54,436 nt of DNA from Deltaproteobacteria bacterium (GTDB taxonomy: Bacteria > Desulfobacterota > Binatia > UBA9968): positions 1 through 54,436 of the forward strand of contig JACPAM010000112.1 in the NCBI GenBank assembly GCA_016180805.1, read 5' to 3'. A program made the position numbers and the translations under genes. The notes under the pieces are model-generated. The model was not told the origin of the DNA. It did not search any database and was given only the letters and a program-made list of their open reading frames with translations. This document shows, piece after piece, positions 2 through 37,169 of the stretch. The stretch's first letter is position 1; every line of letters begins with the position of its first letter.

Positions 2-565
2 CCATCGGCCCTGGAGGCGGCGCGCTCGTTGGGGGCAAACATAGCGCCTTCGTCGAAGGCGGTCGCACAAGCATCCACCATCATCGACGTCGTGGTGCGC
101 ACCGACCAGGAGGTGATGGATTGCACGATGGGTAAGGATGGTATTCTGGATGGAGCCGCAGCCGGCACCCTGGTGCTGCTCCACAGCACGATCCTTCCGG
201 ACACCACCAAGAAGGTGGCCGAAGCCGCTCGCCAACGGAATGTCCACGTGATCGATGCATGCATGACTTCGGTGCCGAGGGTTGTGCGCCAGGGAGGGCT
301 GACCTTTCTCGTTGGCGGACCCGCGGAGCTGGTAGAGCGAGCGAGACCGCACCTCCTCAACATGGCGAAAGAGGTGATGCATATGGGACCTCTGGGAGCC
401 GGGAATATGGCGAAGCTGATCAAGAACTTGGTCATGGCGTCGGAGGCGCTCATCGTCCACTCGGGCGGCGATTGGGCGTTGAAATTCCGATCACGGAGCA
501 ACTCGCGGCCGCGGGGCTGCGTTTGGTCGGGTCGAAAGGCTGAAAGCGTCGCTGACCGCATTTAA
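2..565 (+). pseudogene. beta-hydroxyacid (3-hydroxyisobutyrate/6-phosphogluconate-like) dehydrogenase, 5' partial and internally deleted
   Basis: The frame is open to the window edge. GTLVLLHSTILP, VIDACMTSVPRVVRQGGLTFLVGGP and GPLGAGNMAKLIKN fit this family. After SEALIVH the match stops, and the family C-terminus (RRLGVEIPITEQLAAAGL) continues in another frame. This indicates an internal deletion plus frameshift. Confidence 0.55.
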
Positions 566-6000: not shown

Positions 6001-6075
6001 CGTCCCCGACGGGATTTGAACCCGTGTTGCCGGCGTGAAAGGCCGGTGTCCTGGGCCAGGCTAGACGACGGGGAC
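6001..6075 (-). tRNA. tRNA-Glu (anticodon TTC)
   Basis: GTCCCCGTCGTCTAGCCTGGCCCAGGACACCGGCCTTTCACGCCGGCAACACGGGTTCAAATCCCGTCGGGGACG folds as a cloverleaf. The anticodon loop is CTTTCAC. Confidence 0.95.
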
Positions 6076-6079
6076 ATGA

Positions 6080-6152
6080 TGAGCCGTGCTGGACTCGAAC
6101 CAGCGACCCTCTGCTTAAAAGGCAGATGCTCTACCGCCTGAGCTAACGGCTC
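6080..6152 (-). tRNA. tRNA-Lys (anticodon TTT)
   Basis: GAGCCGTTAGCTCAGGCGGTAGAGCATCTGCCTTTTAAGCAGAGGGTCGCTGGTTCGAGTCCAGCACGGCTCA. The anticodon loop is CTTTTAA. Confidence 0.95.
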
Positions 6153-6176
6153 GCTGCGAGCGGACTAAACTTCCTA

Positions 6177-6205
6177 CTAATAACGGGATTGGCTCTCTAA
6201 GTCAA
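6177..6205 (-). promoter_or_regulatory. sigma70-like promoter for the tRNA-Lys/tRNA-Glu pair
   Basis: On the minus strand: TTGACT, a 17-nt spacer, then TATTAG, about 25 nt upstream of tRNA-Lys. Confidence 0.4.
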
Positions 6206-6306
6206 CGAACGGCATCGGCAAACCCGCTCCGGGAGAAGGCGAGGGAGGGAAATCCCACACCTTATCGTCGTAGCAATACGTGGGCCAACAAGAACTCGCA
6301 CAGTCC

Positions 6307-6335
6307 TTGCAATCATTGCGGGAACCGACTAATAA
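6307..6335 (+). promoter_or_regulatory. sigma70-like promoter for tRNA-Arg
   Basis: TTGCAA (6307-6312), a 17-nt spacer, then TAATAA (6330-6335). The tRNA starts at 6347. Confidence 0.4.
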
Positions 6336-6346
6336 CAGGGAACGAG

Positions 6347-6419
6347 GCCCCCGTAGCTCAGAGGATAGAGCACAGGATTCCTAATCCTGGGGTCGTGAGT
6401 TCGAATCTCGCCGGGGGCA
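6347..6419 (+). tRNA. tRNA-Arg (anticodon CCT)
   Basis: GCCCCCGTAGCTCAGAGGATAGAGCACAGGATTCCTAATCCTGGGGTCGTGAGTTCGAATCTCGCCGGGGGCA. The anticodon loop is TTCCTAA. Confidence 0.95.
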
Positions 6420-26077: not shown

Positions 26078-30310
<4,233 letters not shown>

Positions 30311-30316
30311 TAGCTC

Positions 30317-32287
30317 TCAGCTATCAGCCTCCGAATTGGAGCTGAGGGCTGAGCGCTGATTGCTATCATCAGCGTTTATGATCGAGTAAACCACGACTTT
30401 GTCGCGCTCATTTTGTTCCACCTCGCGGAGCTTTACCCGCACCCGCTCTCGGTCTGCGCTGGGGATGTGCTTGCCCACATAATCCGGTTTGACCGGCAGC
30501 TCCCGGAGCCCGCGATCGATGAGAACGGCCAAACGCACCGAACGGGGCCTGGCGGACTGAAAAATAAGACTGAGCGCGGCGCGCACGGTCCTGCCGGTAT
30601 GGATTACGTCGTCCACCAAAATGACCTCCCGATCGTGCAAATCAGGGGCGGGGAGTTTCGGGTCTTCGGGTAAGACCATTTCCGGCTGGCCGCCGGATCC
30701 ATACATCTCGATCTCCCTCGTCTCGAACCTTCTCTGCCATTGTTTTTCTAACTCACGGGCAATTCGGCGCGCCAAAAAAGCACCCTTGGTTCGAATCCCC
30801 ACGATGACCAAGCTGTCACGGTCCTCGGTCTCGCGCCCGATCGATTCGCTTATCCGCTTCACCGCCGCCCGGAGCTCGGCTTCATCCATGAGATTTCGTT
30901 GCGGGCCGGTCCGGTAGGGTTCGTAACCGAGTTCCTCGGCCTGCTTGATGGTGTCGAAAACGATCAGATCGCCCTCCCGAAGCCACCCGTCCACAATCTC
31001 CTTCAGACCCCTATCGTACGGGCAATATCGTTTCGATCGAACGTGTCCGACCAGTTGGACCTTGAAGCGATGGTCGCAGTAAAAGCATCTGAGGTTAAGC
31101 GTCTCACTGGAGCCGGGAGGAAGCACCTCAAACCGCAGGTCGGTCGATGTAGGTTCGGTTCGCGTTACGCAGTTGGCGTTGGCGCACGCCGAGATTGCGC
31201 CCTCCGGTCCCCGGTAGACTGTCAGATACTTTTTGGCGGGGTGCGAGGAAGCAGAGTCATTCATGAGAAAGCTTAGCAATGCCATCCGGACGGGGACACC
31301 GTAAGCCGCCTGTTTGAAGTAAATACCCCGGCGGTCCTTGTCGACGGCCGGCGATAACTCGTCCACCCGCGGCAAAGGATGCATGACGACCGCGTCTTTG
31401 AACCGTTTTTCCTTCAAAAACCGGTCCCCGATGCGCGGGTAGCTCGCCTCTCCTTCCGCTACGGGCTCGCGCAGCCGCTCCTTCTGCTTGCGCGTCACAT
31501 AAAAGGCATCGAACTTGAGCCCGGGCGCCATTTTGCTGAGATCGTCTTGCAACTCTTCGTCGACCCTGGTGAAAAGGGCTAGTTGGTGGGGCCGGTTCGG
31601 CGTGAGATAGATGGCGTCGGGTTGCTCGACCACCGCCTGGAGGTCCCGCGAGACGAGGGGCAATGGGCTGTAATGGTGCTCGTTTTGCAGCTTCTCGATC
31701 ACATACTCGGGAAGCTCCATGCCGTTAGCAGCCAAAGTCACGACGTGGACGCCAAAACGGGCCAAGGCGTAAACGAGCGAATGAACGGTCCGACCATGCT
31801 TGAGGTCGCCGCAAATGACCACGGTGAGTCCCTTGAGGTTGCCCTTTTCCTTTTTGAGGGTGTACAGGTCGCAAAGAGTCTGGGTGGGGTGCTCATGACT
31901 CCCATCTCCGGCATTGACCACTGGCACATCGGCAAATTCCGCCATCGCCTGCACCGCCCCATCCCAGTAATGGCGGATCACGAGCACGTCCGCATAGCTG
32001 GAGACCACTCTGGCGGTGTCCGCGATGCTTTCCCCCTTCGCCGCCGAAGACGACCGCATATCCGGGCAGCTGATGGCGGAGCCTCCGAGTCGCTGCATGG
32101 CAGATTCGAAGGAGAGCCGGGTGCGCGTGCTTGGCTCGTAGAAGAGCGTGGCCATGATCTTGCCCGCGCAGCTCTTGGCATGGGAAGCGATAGGGTTCAG
32201 ATCGACCATGGCATCGGCCAACTGGAAGATCTCTTCGATCTCGCGATCGGTCAGATCCGCAATCGAGACCAGATCCCTTTTTCTCAT
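30317..32287 (-). CDS. pyrB: aspartate carbamoyltransferase catalytic chain fused to a PyrI-type zinc domain and a PyrR-like phosphoribosyltransferase domain
   Basis: The PyrB part has EPSTRTRLSFE, HEHPTQTL and MHPLPRVDEL. The PyrI zinc domain reads ACANANCVTRTEP ... LRCFYCDHRF. The PyrR-like part reads IVGIRTKGAFLARRIA ... VILVDDVIHTGRTVRAAL ... LIDRGLRELPVKPDYVGKHIP. Confidence 0.85.
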   Translation of the reverse strand: MRKRDLVSIADLTDREIEEIFQLADAMVDLNPIASHAKSCAGKIMATLFYEPSTRTRLSFESAMQRLGGSAISCPDMRSSSAAKGESIADTARVVSSYADVLVIRHYWDGAVQAMAEFADVPVVNAGDGSHEHPTQTLCDLYTLKKEKGNLKGLTVVICGDLKHGRTVHSLVYALARFGVHVVTLAANGMELPEYVIEKLQNEHHYSPLPLVSRDLQAVVEQPDAIYLTPNRPHQLALFTRVDEELQDDLSKMAPGLKFDAFYVTRKQKERLREPVAEGEASYPRIGDRFLKEKRFKDAVVMHPLPRVDELSPAVDKDRRGIYFKQAAYGVPVRMALLSFLMNDSASSHPAKKYLTVYRGPEGAISACANANCVTRTEPTSTDLRFEVLPPGSSETLNLRCFYCDHRFKVQLVGHVRSKRYCPYDRGLKEIVDGWLREGDLIVFDTIKQAEELGYEPYRTGPQRNLMDEAELRAAVKRISESIGRETEDRDSLVIVGIRTKGAFLARRIARELEKQWQRRFETREIEMYGSGGQPEMVLPEDPKLPAPDLHDREVILVDDVIHTGRTVRAALSLIFQSARPRSVRLAVLIDRGLRELPVKPDYVGKHIPSADRERVRVKLREVEQNERDKVVVYSIINADDSNQRSALSSNSEADS

Positions 32288-32820
32288 CGCCAGCTCTTTA
32301 CCGTGATCTGATCGATTCCGTCCGATTCTCGGAGCCGGACATTGACCCTTTCGGAATTGGCTACCTGGACGTTCTTTCCCACGATATCCGCTCGGATAGG
32401 CAATTCGCGCTCGCCGCGGTCAACCAAAATGGCGACGAGGATCCGTTTCGGGTTTCCCAAGTGGCTGATCAAGTCCAGGGCTGCCCTGATGGTGCGACCG
32501 GTGTAAATCACGTCATCGACGACGACGACCGTTTTGTCATCCACGGAAACCGGGACTTCCGTGGCGGCCTTTTTCGAAAGCTCAGCGCTTCGGCTCCGGT
32601 CATCCCGATAAGCGGAAACATCGATGTCGCCGACAGGTGGAGCCGCGCCGGTAATGCCTTCAATCTTAGCTGCGATTCGCCGGACGAGATGCGCGCCGCG
32701 AGTGCGGATTCCCAAAAGGGTCAGGTCTTTTGTCCCACCGTTTTTCTCGACGATCTCGTGGGCTAACCGGCTGATGGTCCGGCTGACTTCGTCAGCCTCG
32801 AATAAAACCCGTCTCGTCAT
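32284..32820 (-). CDS. pyrR: bifunctional pyr operon regulator / uracil phosphoribosyltransferase PyrR
   Basis: LLGIRTRGAHLVRRIA ... DVSAYRDD ... VVVVDDVIYTGRTIRAALD ... LVDRGERELPIRADIVGKNV. The ATG is at 32820, and the stop overlaps the pyrB start (ATGA). Confidence 0.92.
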   Translation of the reverse strand: MTRRVLFEADEVSRTISRLAHEIVEKNGGTKDLTLLGIRTRGAHLVRRIAAKIEGITGAAPPVGDIDVSAYRDDRSRSAELSKKAATEVPVSVDDKTVVVVDDVIYTGRTIRAALDLISHLGNPKRILVAILVDRGERELPIRADIVGKNVQVANSERVNVRLRESDGIDQITVKSWR

Positions 32821-32824
32821 CGCC

Positions 32825-32860
32825 AAAAAAAAGACCCCTACGGCGTTACCGCAGGGGTCT
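32825..32860 (-). terminator. intrinsic terminator of the pyr attenuator
   Basis: On the minus strand: AGACCCCUGCGG UAACG CCGUAGGGGUCU followed by UUUUUUUU, ending 4 nt before the pyrR ATG. Confidence 0.7.
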
Positions 32861-32896
32861 TTGCCATGAGATTGCTCGTTTTTCTTTGTTCACAGC

Positions 32897-32932
32897 ATCC
32901 TTCCCAATCTCACCGGATTGGATTAAAGGCTA
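32897..32932 (-). promoter_or_regulatory. PyrR-binding-loop-like hairpin (anti-antiterminator candidate)
   Basis: On the minus strand: GCCUUUAAUCCAAUCCGGUGAGAUUGGGAAGG. It has a lower stem CCUU/AAGG, an internal UAAU, and an upper stem CCAAUC/GAUUGG. The 5' half matches the conserved CCUUUAA..CCA of PyrR sites. The terminal loop differs from the Bacillus consensus. Confidence 0.5.
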
Positions 32933-32992
32933 CTAGTTTTTTATATGGTTGAAACGGGCGGAAGTCAAGCGCTGCTTGGCTCTCCGACCCAA

Positions 32993-35014
32993 TCACTCGG
33001 CCGCGGTCGACACGGTAACGTATTTCTCGGCCTCGCTGCGCCACCATTCGCGCAGGAGCAGAGGTGTTGCGACGCTCGCGCCCACTATATTGACGACCCA
33101 TCCCACCAGCGCATCGCCTTGGAGCGGGATGAGAAGCCCGAGCGCCGAGAGGCCGAGAGCAAGCCGTATGGACAACCCGAGGGGCCGCACCCAGTAACCA
33201 ACCAGGGCCATGCCGAGGATCCAGGTGCCTGCGATCGCTGTGGTCAGAGACAAGGCGATCTCCCAAAGTTGCCCCTTCATCAAGAGCGCAGGAGAATACA
33301 CAAAGAGGAAAGGCACCACATACGCGAGGGCGGCTAAGCGGGTCCCCGCCCATCCCGTTCGCATGGGTGAGGCCCCGATAATGGAGGCCGCCGTGAAACT
33401 CGCAAAAGCGATCGGAGGCGTGATCACCGCAATCACGCCGAAGTAAAAGATAAAAAAATGAGCTGCCATCGGCAGAATACCGAACTGGACAAGCGCAGGG
33501 GCGACCAAAATCGCTAACAGCACGTAGACTGCCGAAGTCGGCAGGCCCATGCCAAGGATCATGCTGACGACCGCAGTGGACAGAAGCAGAACAAAGGCAT
33601 TACCTTTCCCAACCTCTAACAGAGCCGCGGAGAGCTTGAATCCAAGGCCAGTTACAGCCGCGACGCCGATGATGATCCCAGCGGCCGCGAGCAGAACGCC
33701 GAGATCGAGCATGGCACGCCCGGTAGCGGGCAGCGCTCGTAACAGACGAAGCGGCGCCGCGCGATTTTCTTTTCTGACAAAGCCAGCCGCTACCGCAGTA
33801 AAGGCGGCGACAGCCCCCGACTTACCCGCAGACAGTGGAATCAGAAACATAGCATAGACGAGGACAGCCAAAGGCAGGATAAAGGATAAGGTCTCTTTGA
33901 GTACAGGAGCAACCGGGGGGAGCTGATCCCGGGTGAGCCCGCGCAGGCCTATTTTGGCGGCTTCAAGATCGACCTGGACGAACAGCGCAATATAGTAAAG
34001 CAGCGCCGGGATTATCGCCGCGATGACCACTTCCCGATATGGCACGGCCAAGAACTCGGCCATAATGAAGGATGCGACCCCCATAACCGGAGGCATGATT
34101 TGCCCTCCTGTGGAGGCTACCGCTTCGATCGCGGCTGCTACGTGCGGCTTGTAGCCGATGGATTTCATCATGGGTATGGTAATCGCCCCGTCTACGGCGA
34201 CGTTGGCGACTGGGCTTCCGGAAATGGTCCCAAAAAGGCTTGAGGCAAGGATGGCAACTTTCGCCGGGCCGCCGCGGAAGCGCCCCAATGCGGCGGTTGC
34301 GAACGAGGTCAAGAGTAGACCCCCTCCGGTCCCCATGAGAATAGTGCCGAAAAGGATGAAGGGTAAAACGATGGAGGCGCCGGCGCTGAGTGGAATCCCG
34401 AGCAAGAAGTCAGAGCTCAGGTACAGGCTGTTGAGCAAGCTTTCCCATGAAGTACCCCGCCCGCCCAGCAGTCCGGGGATCAAATCCGTGAACCGGGCGT
34501 ACAACAGAAAAAGCAACAAGAGCCCGACGAGGAACCAACCTGCCACGCGCCTTAGAGCCTCCAGAATCAGGAAAACCGTGAGGAGGGCAAGCGGCATGCG
34601 CTCCCATGTGATGTAGCCTAGCTTCACCAGGGGCGCGGGATCGGAATAGAAGATCATCAGGTAAATGCCCGAGACGAGACCGGCCCCAGCCAAGCAGAGG
34701 TCATACCATGGTATCCTATCCCTTGCAGCGTTATCGCTAGCCGGCACAGCTAGAAACGTCCCGGAAAGGATAAGAGCTAGGAAGAGTCCTAGATACTGCT
34801 CGGTCAGAATCGCTTTGTGGACATAAGCGGGTACGTCCAGGACATACAAAAGCCCGCTTATTGGGATAGCGCTCAGGACCGTCGCTTCCAGCAGAGCTAA
34901 AGGCCCCTTTAAAGTTCGGAAGCGAGTCGTTTCAATTTCCAAAGGCAGATCCTTATTTTCCGCTTTCGCGGAGCAGTCGCTCCTGCTTCTGATCCAAATC
35001 ACGCGGCCACACAC
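32993..35014 (-). CDS. TRAP transporter fused permease (TAXI-type large membrane component)
   Basis: Polytopic membrane protein with many hydrophobic helices, lying downstream of two TAXI binding-protein genes. The real start may be TTG at 34942 (preceded by AAGGA) rather than ATG at 35014. Confidence 0.85.
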   Translation of the reverse strand: MCGRVIWIRSRSDCSAKAENKDLPLEIETTRFRTLKGPLALLEATVLSAIPISGLLYVLDVPAYVHKAILTEQYLGLFLALILSGTFLAVPASDNAARDRIPWYDLCLAGAGLVSGIYLMIFYSDPAPLVKLGYITWERMPLALLTVFLILEALRRVAGWFLVGLLLLFLLYARFTDLIPGLLGGRGTSWESLLNSLYLSSDFLLGIPLSAGASIVLPFILFGTILMGTGGGLLLTSFATAALGRFRGGPAKVAILASSLFGTISGSPVANVAVDGAITIPMMKSIGYKPHVAAAIEAVASTGGQIMPPVMGVASFIMAEFLAVPYREVVIAAIIPALLYYIALFVQVDLEAAKIGLRGLTRDQLPPVAPVLKETLSFILPLAVLVYAMFLIPLSAGKSGAVAAFTAVAAGFVRKENRAAPLRLLRALPATGRAMLDLGVLLAAAGIIIGVAAVTGLGFKLSAALLEVGKGNAFVLLLSTAVVSMILGMGLPTSAVYVLLAILVAPALVQFGILPMAAHFFIFYFGVIAVITPPIAFASFTAASIIGASPMRTGWAGTRLAALAYVVPFLFVYSPALLMKGQLWEIALSLTTAIAGTWILGMALVGYWVRPLGLSIRLALGLSALGLLIPLQGDALVGWVVNIVGASVATPLLLREWWRSEAEKYVTVSTAAE

Positions 35015-36044
35015 CGGCCTCTTTGTAAAACCGCACTGCCCCGGGGTGGTAGGGAATGCCGGGATCAGGGTCGACCATCGTTTCGGACTGCCATTCTTTC
35101 AGCGTAACGTGGATGGGCCACAGCTCCTTGTAACGCTCCCACAGAGTCCGTGCGATTTGGTAAGCGGCGGCCTCACTCAAAGCCTCCGCATGGCCAACCA
35201 GATAGTTGTAGTAACCCATGAACACGGTATCCTCTTTAAGAATACCGTAGCCGCCTTTCACGACGGTAAACTCACACGCTGGGATAACTCGTCGACACCT
35301 CTCCACGGCCTCTTTGCCCTTTGGTAGCGGCAGGTATCTCGCCCCCACAGCGGCCGCTGTTTCAACCGTGGCAGCGGTGGCCGGGGTTCCGGCAAAGATA
35401 GAGTCAACCCGTCCTTCCCTAAATGCCTCCTGTCCGCCCACGAAGCTCGCAACTGGAACCGGTGTCGTATCAGATGGAGTGAGACCAACTGTAGCCAACG
35501 TCGCTTCGATGTTCTTGTTGATGATGAAGTTGCCGCCGTGACCGCTGGCTACTCGCTTCCCTTTTAGGTCGGAAATGCTTTTGATTGGCGAGTCTTGCCG
35601 AACGATCAGCCCAATCCAGAGAGGAACCCCGCGTTGCACGAGTCGGATTTTTTGCGCCCGCTGCGGGTAACCGGCCTCCTTCACGCCGTGGAAAGCCCAA
35701 TTGGCGTCAGGAGCCGATACTAGACCCATCTCGATTTCGCCGCGGCTGAAGGTGGGCATCCACGCGTTGGGTCCGACCATGGGTTTGGCCAAAACCTTCA
35801 TCTGGCTGGAATCCGTCAGCACTTTTGCCACCGCCGTGCCTTGCGTGTAATAAACCGTGCCCACCGAATGCGTGGCGATGGCTAATTCCCGTGGCAAGGC
35901 CGGGGATTTTGCCGCCGCAGCTAGCCTTTGAGGTGAGCGCTCCGGCGATGAAGCGGGACCGCCAACGGCTGCTTGCACGAAGACAAGGCTGGTAAGCCAT
36001 AATGCTAAAGCAATCAACTCTTGGAATGTGCGAAGCTTGGGCAT
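34953..36044 (-). CDS. TAXI-family TRAP transporter solute-binding protein, copy 1
   Basis: It has a signal peptide, then GTVYYTQGTAVAKVL ... GLVSAPDANWAF ... GRVDSIFAGTPATAA. It is a close paralogue of the next gene. Confidence 0.88.
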   Translation of the reverse strand: MPKLRTFQELIALALWLTSLVFVQAAVGGPASSPERSPQRLAAAAKSPALPRELAIATHSVGTVYYTQGTAVAKVLTDSSQMKVLAKPMVGPNAWMPTFSRGEIEMGLVSAPDANWAFHGVKEAGYPQRAQKIRLVQRGVPLWIGLIVRQDSPIKSISDLKGKRVASGHGGNFIINKNIEATLATVGLTPSDTTPVPVASFVGGQEAFREGRVDSIFAGTPATAATVETAAAVGARYLPLPKGKEAVERCRRVIPACEFTVVKGGYGILKEDTVFMGYYNYLVGHAEALSEAAAYQIARTLWERYKELWPIHVTLKEWQSETMVDPDPGIPYHPGAVRFYKEAGVWPRDLDQKQERLLRESGK

Positions 36045-36077: not shown

Positions 36078-37169
36078 TTATTTTCCGCTTTCACGGAGCA
36101 GTCGCTCCTGCTTCTGATCCAAATCACGCGGCCACACGCCCGCCTCCTTGTAAAACCTCATCGCTCCGGGGTGGTAGGGAACCCCAGGGTTGGAGTCAAT
36201 CATTGTTTCGGGCTGCCATTCCTTCAATGTGACATGGATGGGCCACAACTCTTTGTAACGCTCCCACAGAGTCCGAGCGATCTGATATGCGGCGGCCTCG
36301 CTCAAAGCTTCCGCATGGCCCACGACGTAGGTGTAATAGCCCATGAGCAAAGTGTCCTCTTTAAGAATTCCGTAGCCGGCTTTCATCACCGTGAACTCAC
36401 AGCCCGGGACTACTCGTCGACACCTTTCTACCGCCTCTTGGGTTTTTGGCAAGGGAAGGTATCGCGCCCCCACAGCGGCCGCTGTTTCGATCGTGGCAGC
36501 GGTGGCCGGGGTTCCGGCAAAGATAGAGTCAACCCTTCCTTCCCTAAATGCTTCCTGTCCTCCCACAAAGCTCGCCACAGGAACCGGGATCGTATCAGCG
36601 GGAGTGAGACCTGCGGTGGCCAGAATGCCCTCGGTAATCTTGGTGATGATAAAGTTTCCGCCGTAACCGGAGGACACCCGTTTCCCCTTCAAGTCAGCGA
36701 TACTTTTGATCGGCGAATCCTGCCGAACGATCATCCCATTCCATATAGGCACGCCGCGCTGGATGAGCCGTATCTTAGTGGAGCGCTGCGGGTAACCCGC
36801 CTCCTTCACCCCGTGAAAAGCCCAACTGCCGTCCGGTGCCGAGAGAACACCCAGCTCGATTTCACCGCGGCTAAAGGTCGGCATCCACGCGTTGGGTCCG
36901 ACCATGGGTTTGGCCAGGACCTTCACTTGGCCGAAATCCGTGAGTACTTTTGCGACTGCAGTGGCGTGAGTGTAGTAGATCGTGCCCACCGAATGCGTGG
37001 CGATGCCTAATTCTCGTGGCAAGGCCGGCGATTTTGCCGCCGCAGCTAGCCGTTGAGGCGAGCGCTCCGGCGATGAAGCGGGACCGCCAACAGCTGCCTG
37101 CACGAAGACAAGGCTGATAAGCCACACTGCTACAACAACCGACTTCTGGAATACAGGAAACTTACGCAT
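36078..37169 (-). CDS. TAXI-family TRAP transporter solute-binding protein, copy 2
   Basis: Same length (363 aa) as copy 1. The N-terminal mature region and the C-terminal 60 aa are near-identical. Confidence 0.88.
   Translation of the reverse strand: MRKFPVFQKSVVVAVWLISLVFVQAAVGGPASSPERSPQRLAAAAKSPALPRELGIATHSVGTIYYTHATAVAKVLTDFGQVKVLAKPMVGPNAWMPTFSRGEIELGVLSAPDGSWAFHGVKEAGYPQRSTKIRLIQRGVPIWNGMIVRQDSPIKSIADLKGKRVSSGYGGNFIITKITEGILATAGLTPADTIPVPVASFVGGQEAFREGRVDSIFAGTPATAATIETAAAVGARYLPLPKTQEAVERCRRVVPGCEFTVMKAGYGILKEDTLLMGYYTYVVGHAEALSEAAAYQIARTLWERYKELWPIHVTLKEWQPETMIDSNPGVPYHPGAMRFYKEAGVWPRDLDQKQERLLRESGK

Follow-up and report, generated by a model that had tools for sequence, protein, structure and literature searches.

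A predicted aspartate carbamoyltransferase joined to a PyrI-type zinc domain and a PyrR-like domain in Candidatus Binatia

Aspartate carbamoyltransferase (ATCase) is a classic model of allosteric regulation. The regulatory chain PyrI consists of an N-terminal nucleotide-binding allosteric domain and a zinc domain that docks on the catalytic chain PyrB; the only role of the zinc domain that we know of, from E. coli ATCase, is to anchor the regulatory domain to the catalytic chain. There are also solutions to regulation or assembly that do not involve PyrI: in the Pseudomonas class A enzyme, PyrB is combined with an inactive dihydroorotase (PyrC') and the nucleotide sites are on the catalytic chain, and the plant enzyme responds to UMP, which is bound in the active site. 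To our knowledge, neither of these uses a zinc domain or a phosphoribosyltransferase (PRTase)-fold sensor, and all characterised regulated ATCases are controlled through PyrI, through a pseudo-dihydroorotase partner or by UMP binding in the active site. The stretch of DNA analysed here (54,436 nucleotides; hereafter the window) holds a gene in which a PyrB chain continues in one frame into a PyrI-like zinc domain and a PyrR-like domain, which raises the question of how such an ATCase would be controlled. We consider it probable that the protein is an ATCase with a built-in regulatory module, a PyrR-like allosteric sensor of nucleotides or PRPP tethered through the zinc domain, and that a free-standing PyrR controls transcription. 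The fusion suggests a previously undescribed form of feedback control of pyrimidine synthesis; in the open-access literature text we found nothing relevant to a PyrB-PyrR fusion.

A sequence-only reading of the locus had described a single unbroken frame of 656 codons with three homologous parts. The ORF listing gives exactly this frame (Table 1), all of the quoted motifs are present in it (EPSTRTRLSFE, HEHPTQTL and MHPLPRVDEL in the first part, ACANANCVTRTEP...LRCFYCDHRF in the second, IVGIRTKGAFLARRIA, VILVDDVIHTGRTVRAAL and IEMYGSGG in the third), and Pfam, NCBIfam, PDB and Foldseek searches recover the three parts in the claimed order, with the C-terminal part having a PRTase fold and the Cys4 segment being PyrI-like. 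When read directly, the stop codon of the upstream pyrR and the start codon of the fused gene overlap as ATGA, and the TGA of the fused gene is followed after 6 nt by the ATG of carA. An AF2 model of the full-length protein has a pLDDT of 81.8 and a pTM of 0.75; because the latter is above the ceiling for the largest domain alone (345 of the 656 residues), the model suggests that the domains pack against each other in a defined way.

Table 1. Features of the fused gene and its operon (window coordinates; residues refer to the fused protein)
Feature	Coordinates	Strand	Basis or remark
Fused gene, PyrB-linker-PyrI zinc domain-adaptor-PyrR-like domain	30317..32287	(-)	656 aa + stop, ATG start
ATCase catalytic chain, residues 1-345, PyrI-associated (archaeal/E. 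coli/plant, "ATC II") type	31253..32287	(-)	TIGR00670
Family-specific Asp-domain insertion (LTPxxPHQLALFT...FDAFY), residues ~229-262	31502..31603	(-)	Alignment to E. coli PyrB
Flexible linker, residues 346-365	31193..31252	(-)	Poor conservation
PyrI-type Cys4 zinc domain, residues 366-410	31058..31192	(-)	Pfam PF02748, PDB profile, Foldseek
Beta-alpha-beta-alpha adaptor (YCxYD..W..LxVFDSIKQAEELGYEPY..GPQR), residues 411-462	30902..31057	(-)	Conservation, AF2 fold
PyrR-like type I PRTase domain, residues about 463-635	30383..30901	(-)	phmmer, NF003549, residue table
Free-standing canonical pyrR	32284..32826	(-)	NF003549, 204.7 bits (cut-off 138)
Transcription attenuator of the pyrR leader (PyrR-binding hairpin, then intrinsic terminator)	32825..32933	(-)	Rfam RF00515
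carA-carB, downstream operon partner	26078..30310	(-)	One 1410-codon ORF in the window

More than 180 protein clusters contain the fusion, with full-length proteins drawn from NCBI, JGI, ENA and Logan assemblies, as do 184 species-representative genomes (scanned with a profile built from a four-sequence alignment). The PyrB homologues longer than 600 aa that the sequence-only reading had proposed looking for are 635-701 aa long and have the same domain order. Nearly all carriers are Candidatus Binatia, with an additional clade labelled Methylomirabilis; they are uncultured MAGs throughout and include the closed long-read chromosomes OZ244621.1 and OY970324.1. The fusion is an older trait shared across the phylum, not something special to the source genome, and this spread had escaped the first reading. 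That separate pyrB, pyrI-like and pyrR genes were joined artificially, by a frameshift, an overlooked stop or chimeric assembly, might be suspected from another in-frame junction nearby, where a truncated carA is fused to carB, but the probability of this is negligible: the same architecture recurs in independent clusters of all four sources and in closed chromosomes, and conservation in the family alignment is continuous through both domain junctions. It is this conservation of the architecture across the family, rather than reads, that excludes an artefact. Every member is fused to PyrB, and a free-standing zinc-adaptor-PyrR chain was not found among the homologues. Hits of about 250-330 aa that resembled such a two-gene version (P0122, P0126, P0124, P0133 and P0139) were rejected as truncated calls, because all of them start with MALL or MALI, at a Met that lies inside the C-terminal helix of PyrB (VRMALL). 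In a neighbour-joining tree of PyrR domains, four fused clades group together with a bootstrap of 22/100, and P0155 stands apart on a long branch; because the tree support is weak, a single origin of the fusion rests on the shared, unique zinc-adaptor module. Members of the family are at present annotated merely as "aspartate carbamoyltransferase".

The catalytic part exceeds the cut-offs of both ATCase equivalog models in NCBIfam (TIGR00670, 298.6 bits against 236.95; NF002032, 288.4 bits against 263) and matches Pfam OTCace_N at residues 4-145 (E = 1e-51) and OTCace in two stretches, the last at residues 294-340 (E = 6e-22). The nearest PDB chains are those of M. jannaschii, P. abyssi, Arabidopsis, Sulfolobus and E. 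coli, the plant enzyme 6YPO among them. The AF2 model has the two-domain carbamoyltransferase fold and, compared with PDB ATCase chains by Foldseek, gives target-normalised TM scores of 0.81-0.89 with E values down to 9e-29. Mapped by alignment to E. coli PyrB, the equivalents of S52-T53-R54-T55 (STRT), S80, K84, R105, H134, Q137, R167, R229, Q231 and P266-L267-P268 (PLP) are invariant in a 123-sequence alignment, and the gene is predicted to encode an active ATCase. A PyrB part of the PyrI-associated type with invariant catalytic residues counts in favour of a built-in sensor.

The linker is set apart by its low conservation (mean top-residue frequency 0.47, compared with 0.75-0.90 in the other parts of the protein). 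The domain that follows it matches PyrI_C over residues 366-409 with 29.4 bits, or with 32.8 bits in a scan of the module by itself (cut-off 23.4); in the PDB its family profile finds PyrI chains and nothing else (E = 1.2e-5), and its best 19 Foldseek matches are all PyrI (rmsd 1.5-1.8 Å over 43 columns, probability at least 0.98). C368, C373, C401 and C404, which correspond with equal spacing to the zinc ligands C109, C114, C138 and C141 of E. coli PyrI, are invariant across the family. N370, N372 and E378 correspond to PyrI N111, N113 and E119, and the equivalents of these residues and of Y140 are invariant or near-invariant even between fused clades with identities of just 31-45%. The PyrI N-terminal domain is absent, as had been claimed, and its place is taken by the PRTase domain beyond the zinc domain: PF01948 gives no Pfam match at E ≤ 0.1 in the fused protein, and tblastn alignments of E. 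coli PyrI begin only at residue ~86-109, in the window as in every related locus.

Residues 411-462, by contrast, had been taken as linker and are instead a conserved, confidently folded sub-domain. Conservation of this adaptor (0.78) equals that of the catalytic domain, and, judged from the family alignment, purifying selection has acted on the adaptor and the PyrR-like domain no less strongly than on the catalytic part. Relatives of the adaptor were found neither in Pfam nor among PDB sequences nor by Foldseek, and its profile matches only fragments of the fused family. A derivation from the N-terminal extensions of PyrR homologues of 230-250 aa was considered and rejected, the extensions being unrelated, low-quality sequence.

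The protein thus shares with class B ATCases (PyrB6-PyrI6 of E. coli and archaea) the catalytic subfamily (Foldseek TM about 0.85) and a homologous Cys4 zinc domain, and presumably also the logic by which that zinc domain anchors a nucleotide sensor to the catalytic trimers. It differs in that the catalytic and regulatory parts form one polypeptide in every member, in place of a separate PyrI chain, that the CTP/ATP/UTP-binding domain of PyrI is missing and that a novel adaptor and a PRTase-fold domain are found C-terminal to the zinc domain. The known PyrB-PyrI fusions (NF009916/PRK13376) also have a regulatory element covalently attached C-terminal to PyrB; in these, however, PyrI is complete, and the present protein is a non-member of that family (97.7 bits against a cut-off of 800, with a match only to residues 47-204).

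The C-terminal domain is clearly homologous to PyrR of Bacillus, Thermus and Mycobacterium. It matches PyrR structures in phmmer (E = 1e-34) and Pfam Pribosyltran over residues 469-612 (E = 7.5e-23), and over residues 463-628 it exceeds the cut-off of the PyrR equivalog NF003549 (152.1 bits against 138); with the remaining four NCBIfam PyrR models, the fused protein is below the cut-off. It had been called a diverged paralogue of the free PyrR next door, in agreement with an identity of ~37% to that protein and with its clustering with the fused copies of other clades, not with the free copies. The PRPP loop (D105-D106-V-x-x-T-G-R112-T113 in PyrR) is retained as VILVDDVIHTGRT, and both the window's clade and the P0130 clade have a conserved DDV(I/L)xTGRT. 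Binataceae have DDVINSGWT, with R112W and Y109N in 40/40 sequences, changes that would weaken phosphate binding, such that the ligand sensed there may differ or binding be lost. The uracil-hood strand (RERVRVKL; ERVxVxL across the family; uracil contacts as given in PMC10970046) is kept, as are R138, H140, R141 and K152 in PyrR-like domains in general, the window protein deviating by having Lys for R42 and Leu for H140.

Other PyrR signatures have changed. The YRDD motif (Y72-R73-D74-D75), present in 71-73 of 76 canonical PyrRs and in 60/60 free Binatia PyrRs, reads YGSG in the window protein, as had been pointed out from the segment IEMYGSGG. R73, and often D75 too, is replaced in Binatia and Binataceae fused copies, and (Y/F)RDD is kept in fused copies of the P0130 and P0285 clades and of P0155. 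This pattern fits a catalytic domain that has been drifting into a sensor. According to what Savacool and Switzer reportedly showed in 2002, T18, R19, H22, R27, R141, R146 and K152 take part in RNA binding by PyrR. The basic residues of helix 1 (R15, R19, H22 and R/K27) are not preserved: positions 18, 19, 22 and 27 of the window protein are K, R, E and E, across the fused clades R19 is mostly Q, S or K, H22 is E or D and R27 is D, E or A, and the net charge of the helix is -3.5 in fused copies, compared with 0.0 in canonical and +0.6 in free PyrRs. The domain hence differs from PyrR in helix 1, in YRDD (in Binatia) and in not being free-standing.

A true PyrR and its RNA target are encoded separately beside the fused gene. 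The free PyrR, whose likely true start is the ATG at 32820, keeps R15, R19, H22, R/K27, YRDD and the PRPP loop. Its leader matches the full RF00515 model with 53.6 bits (E = 2.4e-6); at the gathering score of 54, the model reports nothing for the window or for 12 loci, and the sites surface only in E-value mode. The terminator has a 15-bp stem (32830-32862) and a U8 tail, and the fold z-score of the leader is -4.9. The element lies upstream of free pyrR in 5/6 related loci (48.6-53.7 bits), and only one site per operon was found, where free PyrR would act and is the expected binder. This attenuator had gone unnoticed in the first reading, and it makes a division of labour between the two PyrR copies much clearer. 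The gene order pyrR - fused pyrB - (pyrC) - carA - carB - recG holds in 80/80 loci, and the ATGA coupling of adjacent pyrR and fused gene is found in 80/80 Binatia loci and also in the P0130 clade; in the Methylomirabilis-labelled clade, the fusion occurs without an adjacent free pyrR. The reported lack of pyrC between pyrB and carA holds for the window, where pyrC was not found elsewhere either, and for 32/32 loci of its clade; Binataceae and the P0130 clade have pyrC at this position. carA and carB, separate genes in related loci, form a single ORF in the window because carA lacks its C-terminal ~70 aa.

How the parts might work together can be sketched from these data and from the analogy with class B enzymes. 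On its flexible linker of ~20 residues, the zinc domain would dock on the catalytic chain as in E. coli ATCase and carry the adaptor and the PyrR-derived domain in place of the CTP/ATP-binding domain of PyrI. The PyrR-derived domain appears to have lost the ability to bind RNA and, in Binatia, probably its catalytic activity as well. Because the PRPP loop (the 5-phosphoribosyl site) and the uracil hood are kept, its most likely ligand is UMP/UTP, with which PRPP or guanine nucleotides may compete. PyrR itself binds UMP/UTP and, antagonistically, guanine nucleotides (PMC7430163), the kinds of signals that an ATCase sensor would need. Dimers of the PyrR-like domain could, like PyrI dimers, bridge two trimers into a hexamer, and ligand occupancy would then be relayed to the catalytic trimers; we infer the docking, the bridging, the identity of the ligand and the effect on activity. 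Feedback at the gene level would be separate, with the translationally coupled free PyrR acting on the leader attenuator that would control pyrR, fused pyrB and carAB.

Three other accounts of the fusion have to be weighed against a built-in sensor. The C-terminal domain might be a working uracil phosphoribosyltransferase (UPRTase), as PyrR of B. subtilis is (PMC7430163), so that one protein would combine de novo synthesis with salvage, the zinc domain and adaptor being mere connectors. The PyrR/UPRTase equivalog score, the retained PRPP loop and hood strand and the (Y/F)RDD of P0130, P0285 and P0155 all speak for this, and clades with both YRDD and an intact PRPP loop could be catalytic UPRTases. 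As a general account, however, we find it unlikely: R73, and often D75, is missing from the proteins of Binatia and Binataceae, which account for by far the most carriers (the window included), the PRPP loop of Binataceae has R112W, the ATCase and UPRTase reactions have no common intermediate, such that channelling would bring no gain, there would be no need for a zinc domain of the PyrI type whose docking face (the N111/N113/E119 equivalents) is conserved, and the adjoining free PyrR already has all of the catalytic motifs. To much the same degree we doubt that the zinc-adaptor-PyrR-like module serves only to assemble or stabilise trimers, like the inactive dihydroorotase of Pseudomonas, with no regulation by ligands. 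PyrRs are always dimeric or of higher order, zinc domains provide their tether to the trimers, the PRPP loop of Binataceae is degraded, and the operon of the window's clade lacks pyrC, in keeping with such a scaffold; yet DDVIxTGRT, R138, R141, K152 and ERVxVxL are near-invariant in the window's and P0130 clades despite more than 50% divergence, which would be unexpected if the fold alone mattered. Finally, the fused domain might, in the manner of a trigger enzyme, heterodimerise with free PyrR or bind pyr leader RNA. The adjacency and ATGA coupling of the two genes, the dimerisation of PyrR family members and the retention of R141, K152 and R/K146 on the C-terminal RNA-binding surface are compatible with such cross-talk, but the basic patch of helix 1 has become acidic in every fused clade, the Methylomirabilis-labelled clade has no neighbouring free pyrR and the single RF00515 site per operon is positioned for free PyrR, and we hold it to be very improbable.

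If the built-in sensor is correct, allosteric sensor domains would be exchangeable on a conserved docking scaffold (the zinc "plug" of PyrI), and PyrR would have been recruited twice in one operon, for control at the RNA level and at the enzyme level. The fused enzymes would allow direct tests of how a new effector specificity (for UMP/UTP, for PRPP or for guanine nucleotides, in place of CTP/ATP) is coupled to the T/R transition and would provide a template for engineered ligand-controlled carbamoyltransferases, and the family, so far unannotated, is diagnostic for Binatia and relatives. A more speculative variant, to which we give little credence, is that the fused domain, besides sensing in cis, pairs with the co-encoded free PyrR through the conserved dimer interface, such that the ATCase would sequester or release the PyrR that acts on the attenuator, depending on the nucleotide load; enzyme and transcription feedback would then be joined in a single complex, a trigger-enzyme circuit of two PyrR paralogues.

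It should also be noted that an insertion of ~35 aa in the catalytic chain co-occurs with the fusion, a feature missed in the first reading and a further difference from class B ATCases; it lies beside the 240s region. It is a duplicated S9-like strand plus helix that directly precedes the TRxQKER (R229/Q231) segment and the 240s loop, and residues 232-245 within it have low pLDDT in the monomer model, although they are conserved. The insertion is kept in all fused clades and has no counterpart in solved ATCases of 300-335 aa.

The fused gene is a single uninterrupted ORF that carries every motif quoted in the sequence-only reading, and the division into three homologous parts proposed there (ATCase, PyrI-type zinc domain, and PyrR-like domain) was upheld by Pfam, NCBIfam, and PDB-sequence searches. 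The protein scores above the cut-offs of two ATCase equivalogs (TIGR00670, 298.6 bits versus 237; NF002032, 288.4 bits versus 263), and its residues 463–628 score above that of the PyrR equivalog NF003549 (152.1 bits versus 138). The C-terminal part also matches PyrR structures at E ≈ 1e-34 and, together with its Pribosyltran match, proved to be the PyrR-like phosphoribosyltransferase that had been proposed; it scores above the cut-off of one PyrR profile but lacks two of the residue signatures that define PyrR. Both junctions were read directly: the upstream pyrR ends in CGATGA, the ATG of its ATGA being the start of the fused gene (i.e., the overlap claimed earlier), and the TGA of the fused gene is followed by 6 nt and the ATG of carA.

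Positions of the features in the fused protein (residues) and in the window (nucleotides); conservation is the mean top-residue frequency per segment in 119 full-length relatives
Feature	Position	Strand	Evidence or remark
OTCace_N	residues 4–145		Pfam, E 1e-51
OTCace	two stretches, the last 294–340		Pfam, E 6e-22
PyrI_C	residues 366–409		Pfam, 29.4 bits versus gathering score 23.4
Pribosyltran	residues 469–612		Pfam, E 7.5e-23
Catalytic domains	residues 1–345		conservation 0.83–0.90
True linker	residues 346–364		conservation 0.47
Zinc domain	residues 365–410		conservation 0.75
Adaptor (supposed linker)	residues 411–462		conservation 0.78
PyrR-like domain	residues 463–632		conservation 0.78
Fused gene	30317..32287	−	ATG start, 656 codons (ORF listing); product estimated at ∼73 kDa
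Free pyrR	32284..32826	−	204.7 bits to NF003549
pyrR leader	32825–32933	−	Rfam PyrR-binding site, full model, 53.6 bits versus gathering score 54, E 2.4e-6
carA-carB ORF	26078–30310	−	1410 codons, junction near 29330
TRAP permease	32993–35014	−	673 aa, DctM-type, fused
Binding proteins	34953–36044; 36078–37169	−; −	363 aa each
tRNA genes	6001–6075; 6080–6152; 6347–6419	−; −; +	cluster spanning 6001–6419

The check proposed earlier, a database search for long PyrB homologues, was run on 5.8 billion proteins and returned at least 120 clusters of 629–673 aa with 64–86% identity and the same four Pfam domains; they stem from NCBI, JGI, ENA, and Logan, and the named ones are "Candidatus Binatia" or "Deltaproteobacteria" MAGs. 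When the C-terminal half was compared with 50%-identity representatives, few clusters carried the whole module, namely P0121 (55% identity), the Binataceae-type clusters P0125 and P0126 (40%), and two remote fusions of full length, P0130 (35%) and P0155 (31%). With P0130 as the query, two more clades came to light, P0271–P0284 and P0285–P0292, the latter containing a protein labelled Candidatus Methylomirabilis. When a single genome of each GTDB species was scanned for the zinc-plus-adaptor module, it turned up in 184. Of these, 80 were fetched, nearly all from Binatia, Binataceae, or Binatus (some under other MAG labels, for example Deltaproteobacteria or Syntrophobacteraceae); the carriers include Ca. 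Binatus soli and two closed chromosomes, OZ244621.1 and OY970324.1. The fusion is a real, lineage-wide protein and no assembly accident, filed in databases as "aspartate carbamoyltransferase" and occasionally as "PyrR, partial," and no split, two-gene version was found among the searched homologues. Matches of ∼250–330 aa, considered as a free-standing regulatory chain, were rejected as truncated calls, each of them beginning at the Met within the C-terminal helix of PyrB (VRMALL). Eight loci from long-read MAGs (L021, L047, L052, L053, L055, L059, L065, and L076) show apparent frameshifts that interrupt carA, carB, or the PyrB part of the fused gene (the last in L059); sequencing error, not biology, is the probable cause.

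Among PDB sequences, the N-terminal part is nearest to the catalytic chains of M. jannaschii, P. abyssi, Arabidopsis, Sulfolobus, and E. coli (E 9e-76 to 1e-57), i.e., to the plant enzyme and to ATCases with a PyrI partner, and its AlphaFold2 model superposes on solved ATCases with a TM score of about 0.85. Because all catalytic residues are invariant in the family alignment mapped to E. coli PyrB, the enzyme should be active as an ATCase. The same mapping reveals a family-specific insertion of ∼35 aa (LTPxxPHQLALFT...FDAFY) that resembles a duplicated S9 strand plus helix, directly before TRxQKER (aspartate ligands R229 and Q231) and beside the 240s loop; it is found in every fused clade, whereas solved ATCases (300–335 aa long) are without it. 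The insertion is strongly conserved, yet residues 232–245 have low confidence in the AlphaFold2 monomer, a pattern typical of inter-subunit or inter-domain contacts, and for this reason we regard it as a candidate regulatory interface.

The uneven conservation of the segments places the flexible tether in the ∼20 residues preceding the zinc domain. Residues 411–462, by contrast, had been taken for a linker and turn out to be a conserved, structured β-α-β-α element (YCxYD..W..LxVFDSIKQAEELGYEPY..GPQR), which we call the adaptor. The eleven best PDB matches of the four-cysteine segment are PyrI regulatory chains, at single-sequence E values of 0.011–0.24, and a profile built from seven divergent family members reaches E 1.2e-5 against PDB PyrI, aligning with E. 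coli PyrI 107–150 and all four zinc ligands. The zinc-plus-adaptor module modelled alone (pLDDT 75) has PyrI chains as its best 19 Foldseek matches (43 columns, rmsd 1.5–1.8 Å, probability ≥0.98), its other matches being noise, so that sequence and fold agree with the PyrI-like character first ascribed to this segment. The adaptor itself has no match in Pfam, PDB sequences, or PDB folds, and its profile matches nothing beyond fragments of the fused family; sequence comparison detects no PyrI allosteric domain in the window or in any related locus. The structure prediction that had been suggested was run on the monomer, and the full-length AlphaFold2 model (123-sequence alignment) has a pLDDT of 81.8 and a pTM of 0.75, which exceeds what the 345-residue catalytic part alone could give and implies that the C-terminal modules are packed in a defined manner in the predicted structure.

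The residue comparison of the PyrR-like domain, in B. subtilis numbering, covered 76 canonical PyrRs and 60 free ones of Binatia, as well as two sets of fused domains, 72 from the loci and 19 from other clades. The fused domains keep G43, the PRPP loop D105-D106-V-x-x-T/S-G-R112-T113 (the window reads VILVDDVIHTGRT), and D137, R138, G139, H140, R141, and K152. They also retain the ERVxVxL strand, the counterpart of the M. tuberculosis residues V176, H177, V178, and R179, which contact uracil or 5-FU together with R58 and D120 (PMC10970046). No fused clade keeps the basic helix-1 residues: Q, S, K, or D stands at position 19 and D, E, or A at position 27, and position 22 carries E or D in the Binatia and Binataceae domains but K or R in those of the P0130 and P0285 clades. 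The net helix-1 charge is −3.5 ± 1.5 versus 0.0 in canonical and +0.6 in free PyrRs. These basic residues are said to have been assigned to the RNA-binding surface of PyrR by Savacool and Switzer in 2002. The YRDD loop is lost only in the Binatia and Binataceae fused domains, as had been pointed out for the window; it is present in 71–73 of the 76 canonical PyrRs and in all 60 free copies, and is also kept in the fused P0130 clade, the P0285 clade, and P0155. All 40 Binataceae fused sequences (loci L033–L080) read DDVINSGWT instead of DDVxxTGRT (i.e., R112W and Y109N), and such a PRPP loop may sense another ligand than the loop in the window's clade does, or may no longer bind one; the Methylomirabilis-labelled locus L082 of the P0285 clade carries T110R in this loop.

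A neighbor-joining tree unites four fused clades, with weak bootstrap support (22/100), to the exclusion of the co-resident free PyrR and leaves P0155 as a stray long branch, in line with the earlier view of the fused copy as a diverged paralogue of its neighbor; a single origin is better argued from the shared adaptor, which has no known relative outside the family. The most parsimonious scenario is that a working PyrR/UPRTase-like domain was fused once, long ago, that it then ceased to bind RNA, and that catalytic-loop residues were lost later in Binatia, a succession that would amount to drift toward a pure ligand sensor.

The free PyrR retains R15, R19, H22, R/K27, YRDD, and the PRPP loop. 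Its leader, with a fold z-score of −4.9, ends with a 15-bp terminator and U8 just ahead of the start codon and contains a GAGAUUG/CAAUCUC complementarity that could form an antiterminator. The same PyrR element lies upstream of free pyrR in five of six related loci, from both Binatia and Binataceae (48.6–53.7 bits). The listed TTG start of free pyrR falls within the terminator U-tract (32820–32826, minus strand), and the ATG two codons downstream, at 32820, is the more plausible start.

In the fused protein, then, a flexible tether connects an intact ATCase covalently to a zinc domain of PyrI type whose docking face is conserved; the adaptor follows, and after it a PyrR-derived domain that keeps the phosphoribosyl/uracil pocket and not the RNA-binding helix. 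A canonical PyrR with its attenuator lies immediately upstream. On balance we favor, with moderate confidence, an ATCase whose zinc-domain-tethered PyrR-like sensor gives enzyme-level feedback, with the free PyrR giving RNA-level control. The zinc domain would sit on a catalytic chain as it does in the E. coli enzyme, and the PyrR-like domains would dimerize and bridge two trimers, as PyrI dimers do. PyrR binds UMP/UTP and, antagonistically, guanine nucleotides (PMC7430163); in the fusion, UMP/UTP in the phosphoribosyltransferase pocket, possibly against PRPP or guanine nucleotides, would shift ATCase activity, and the two paralogues would provide two layers of pyrimidine feedback, the free copy at the RNA level and the fused copy at the enzyme level.

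A bifunctional ATCase-UPRTase is unlikely, given the lost YRDD and R112W, and in such an enzyme the docking domain would be pointless. The conserved ligand motifs make it just as doubtful that the domain is a structural scaffold only, while the acidic helix 1 and a clade with the fusion and no adjacent pyrR speak still more strongly against cross-talk with the free PyrR or with RNA; we give practically no credence to an artefact. In its manner of working, the feedback-regulated fusion that we favor resembles a class B ATCase; it is, however, not a PyrI, as the allosteric domain is missing and the module is no separate chain, nor does it belong to NF009916, the family of known PyrB-PyrI fusions (97.7 bits versus 800). 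No description of such a fusion was found in the open-access full-text literature. What is new in this proposed zinc-domain-tethered allosteric ATCase is the swapped sensor and the adaptor; a natural sensor-domain swap would surprise ATCase specialists and is directly testable by expression and kinetics.

The order pyrR, fused pyrB, carA, carB, recG is kept in all 80 loci. The P0130 clade and 47 Binataceae-type loci have a pyrC after the fused gene, which the window's clade lacks at this place (32/32 loci), so the earlier remark that none lies between pyrB and carA holds for the whole clade; none was found anywhere in the window. In the Methylomirabilis-labelled clade no pyrR adjoins the fused gene, and the operon of L082 (GCA_036555225.1, "Ca. 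Methylomirabilis sp.") runs fused pyrB, a weak Tricorn_N-like ORF, carA, a TPR protein, carB, and a pyrK-like gene. In the window, carA and carB form one ORF: carA ends after RKVEIT, lacks its last ∼70 aa (SQNHGFAV...HPE, the stretch with the glutaminase-triad His/Glu), and continues in frame into sequence just upstream of the carB start MPKRTD. Both genes are separate and complete in all related loci, and the junction is either a real deletion leaving a glutaminase-dead CPSase or an assembly collapse. Among close relatives, the carA-carB gap ranges from ∼250 nt to ∼1.9 kb (L001, 2830–3600; L004, 4274–5170; L006 and L007), with insertions where it is expanded: one ∼300-aa ORF in L004 and, in L001, what we take by eye to be a putative toxin-antitoxin-type pair of a nucleotidyltransferase-like (GSYAYG..DxD) and a HEPN-like protein. 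Such insertions point to a hotspot, which may explain the deletion in the window. Farther upstream of pyrR, two tandem paralogous NMT1_3/TAXI-type periplasmic binding proteins with near-identical N-terminal regions precede the TRAP permease, whose gene shares ∼60 nt at its 5′ end with that of the first binding protein, and the window also holds a three-tRNA cluster.
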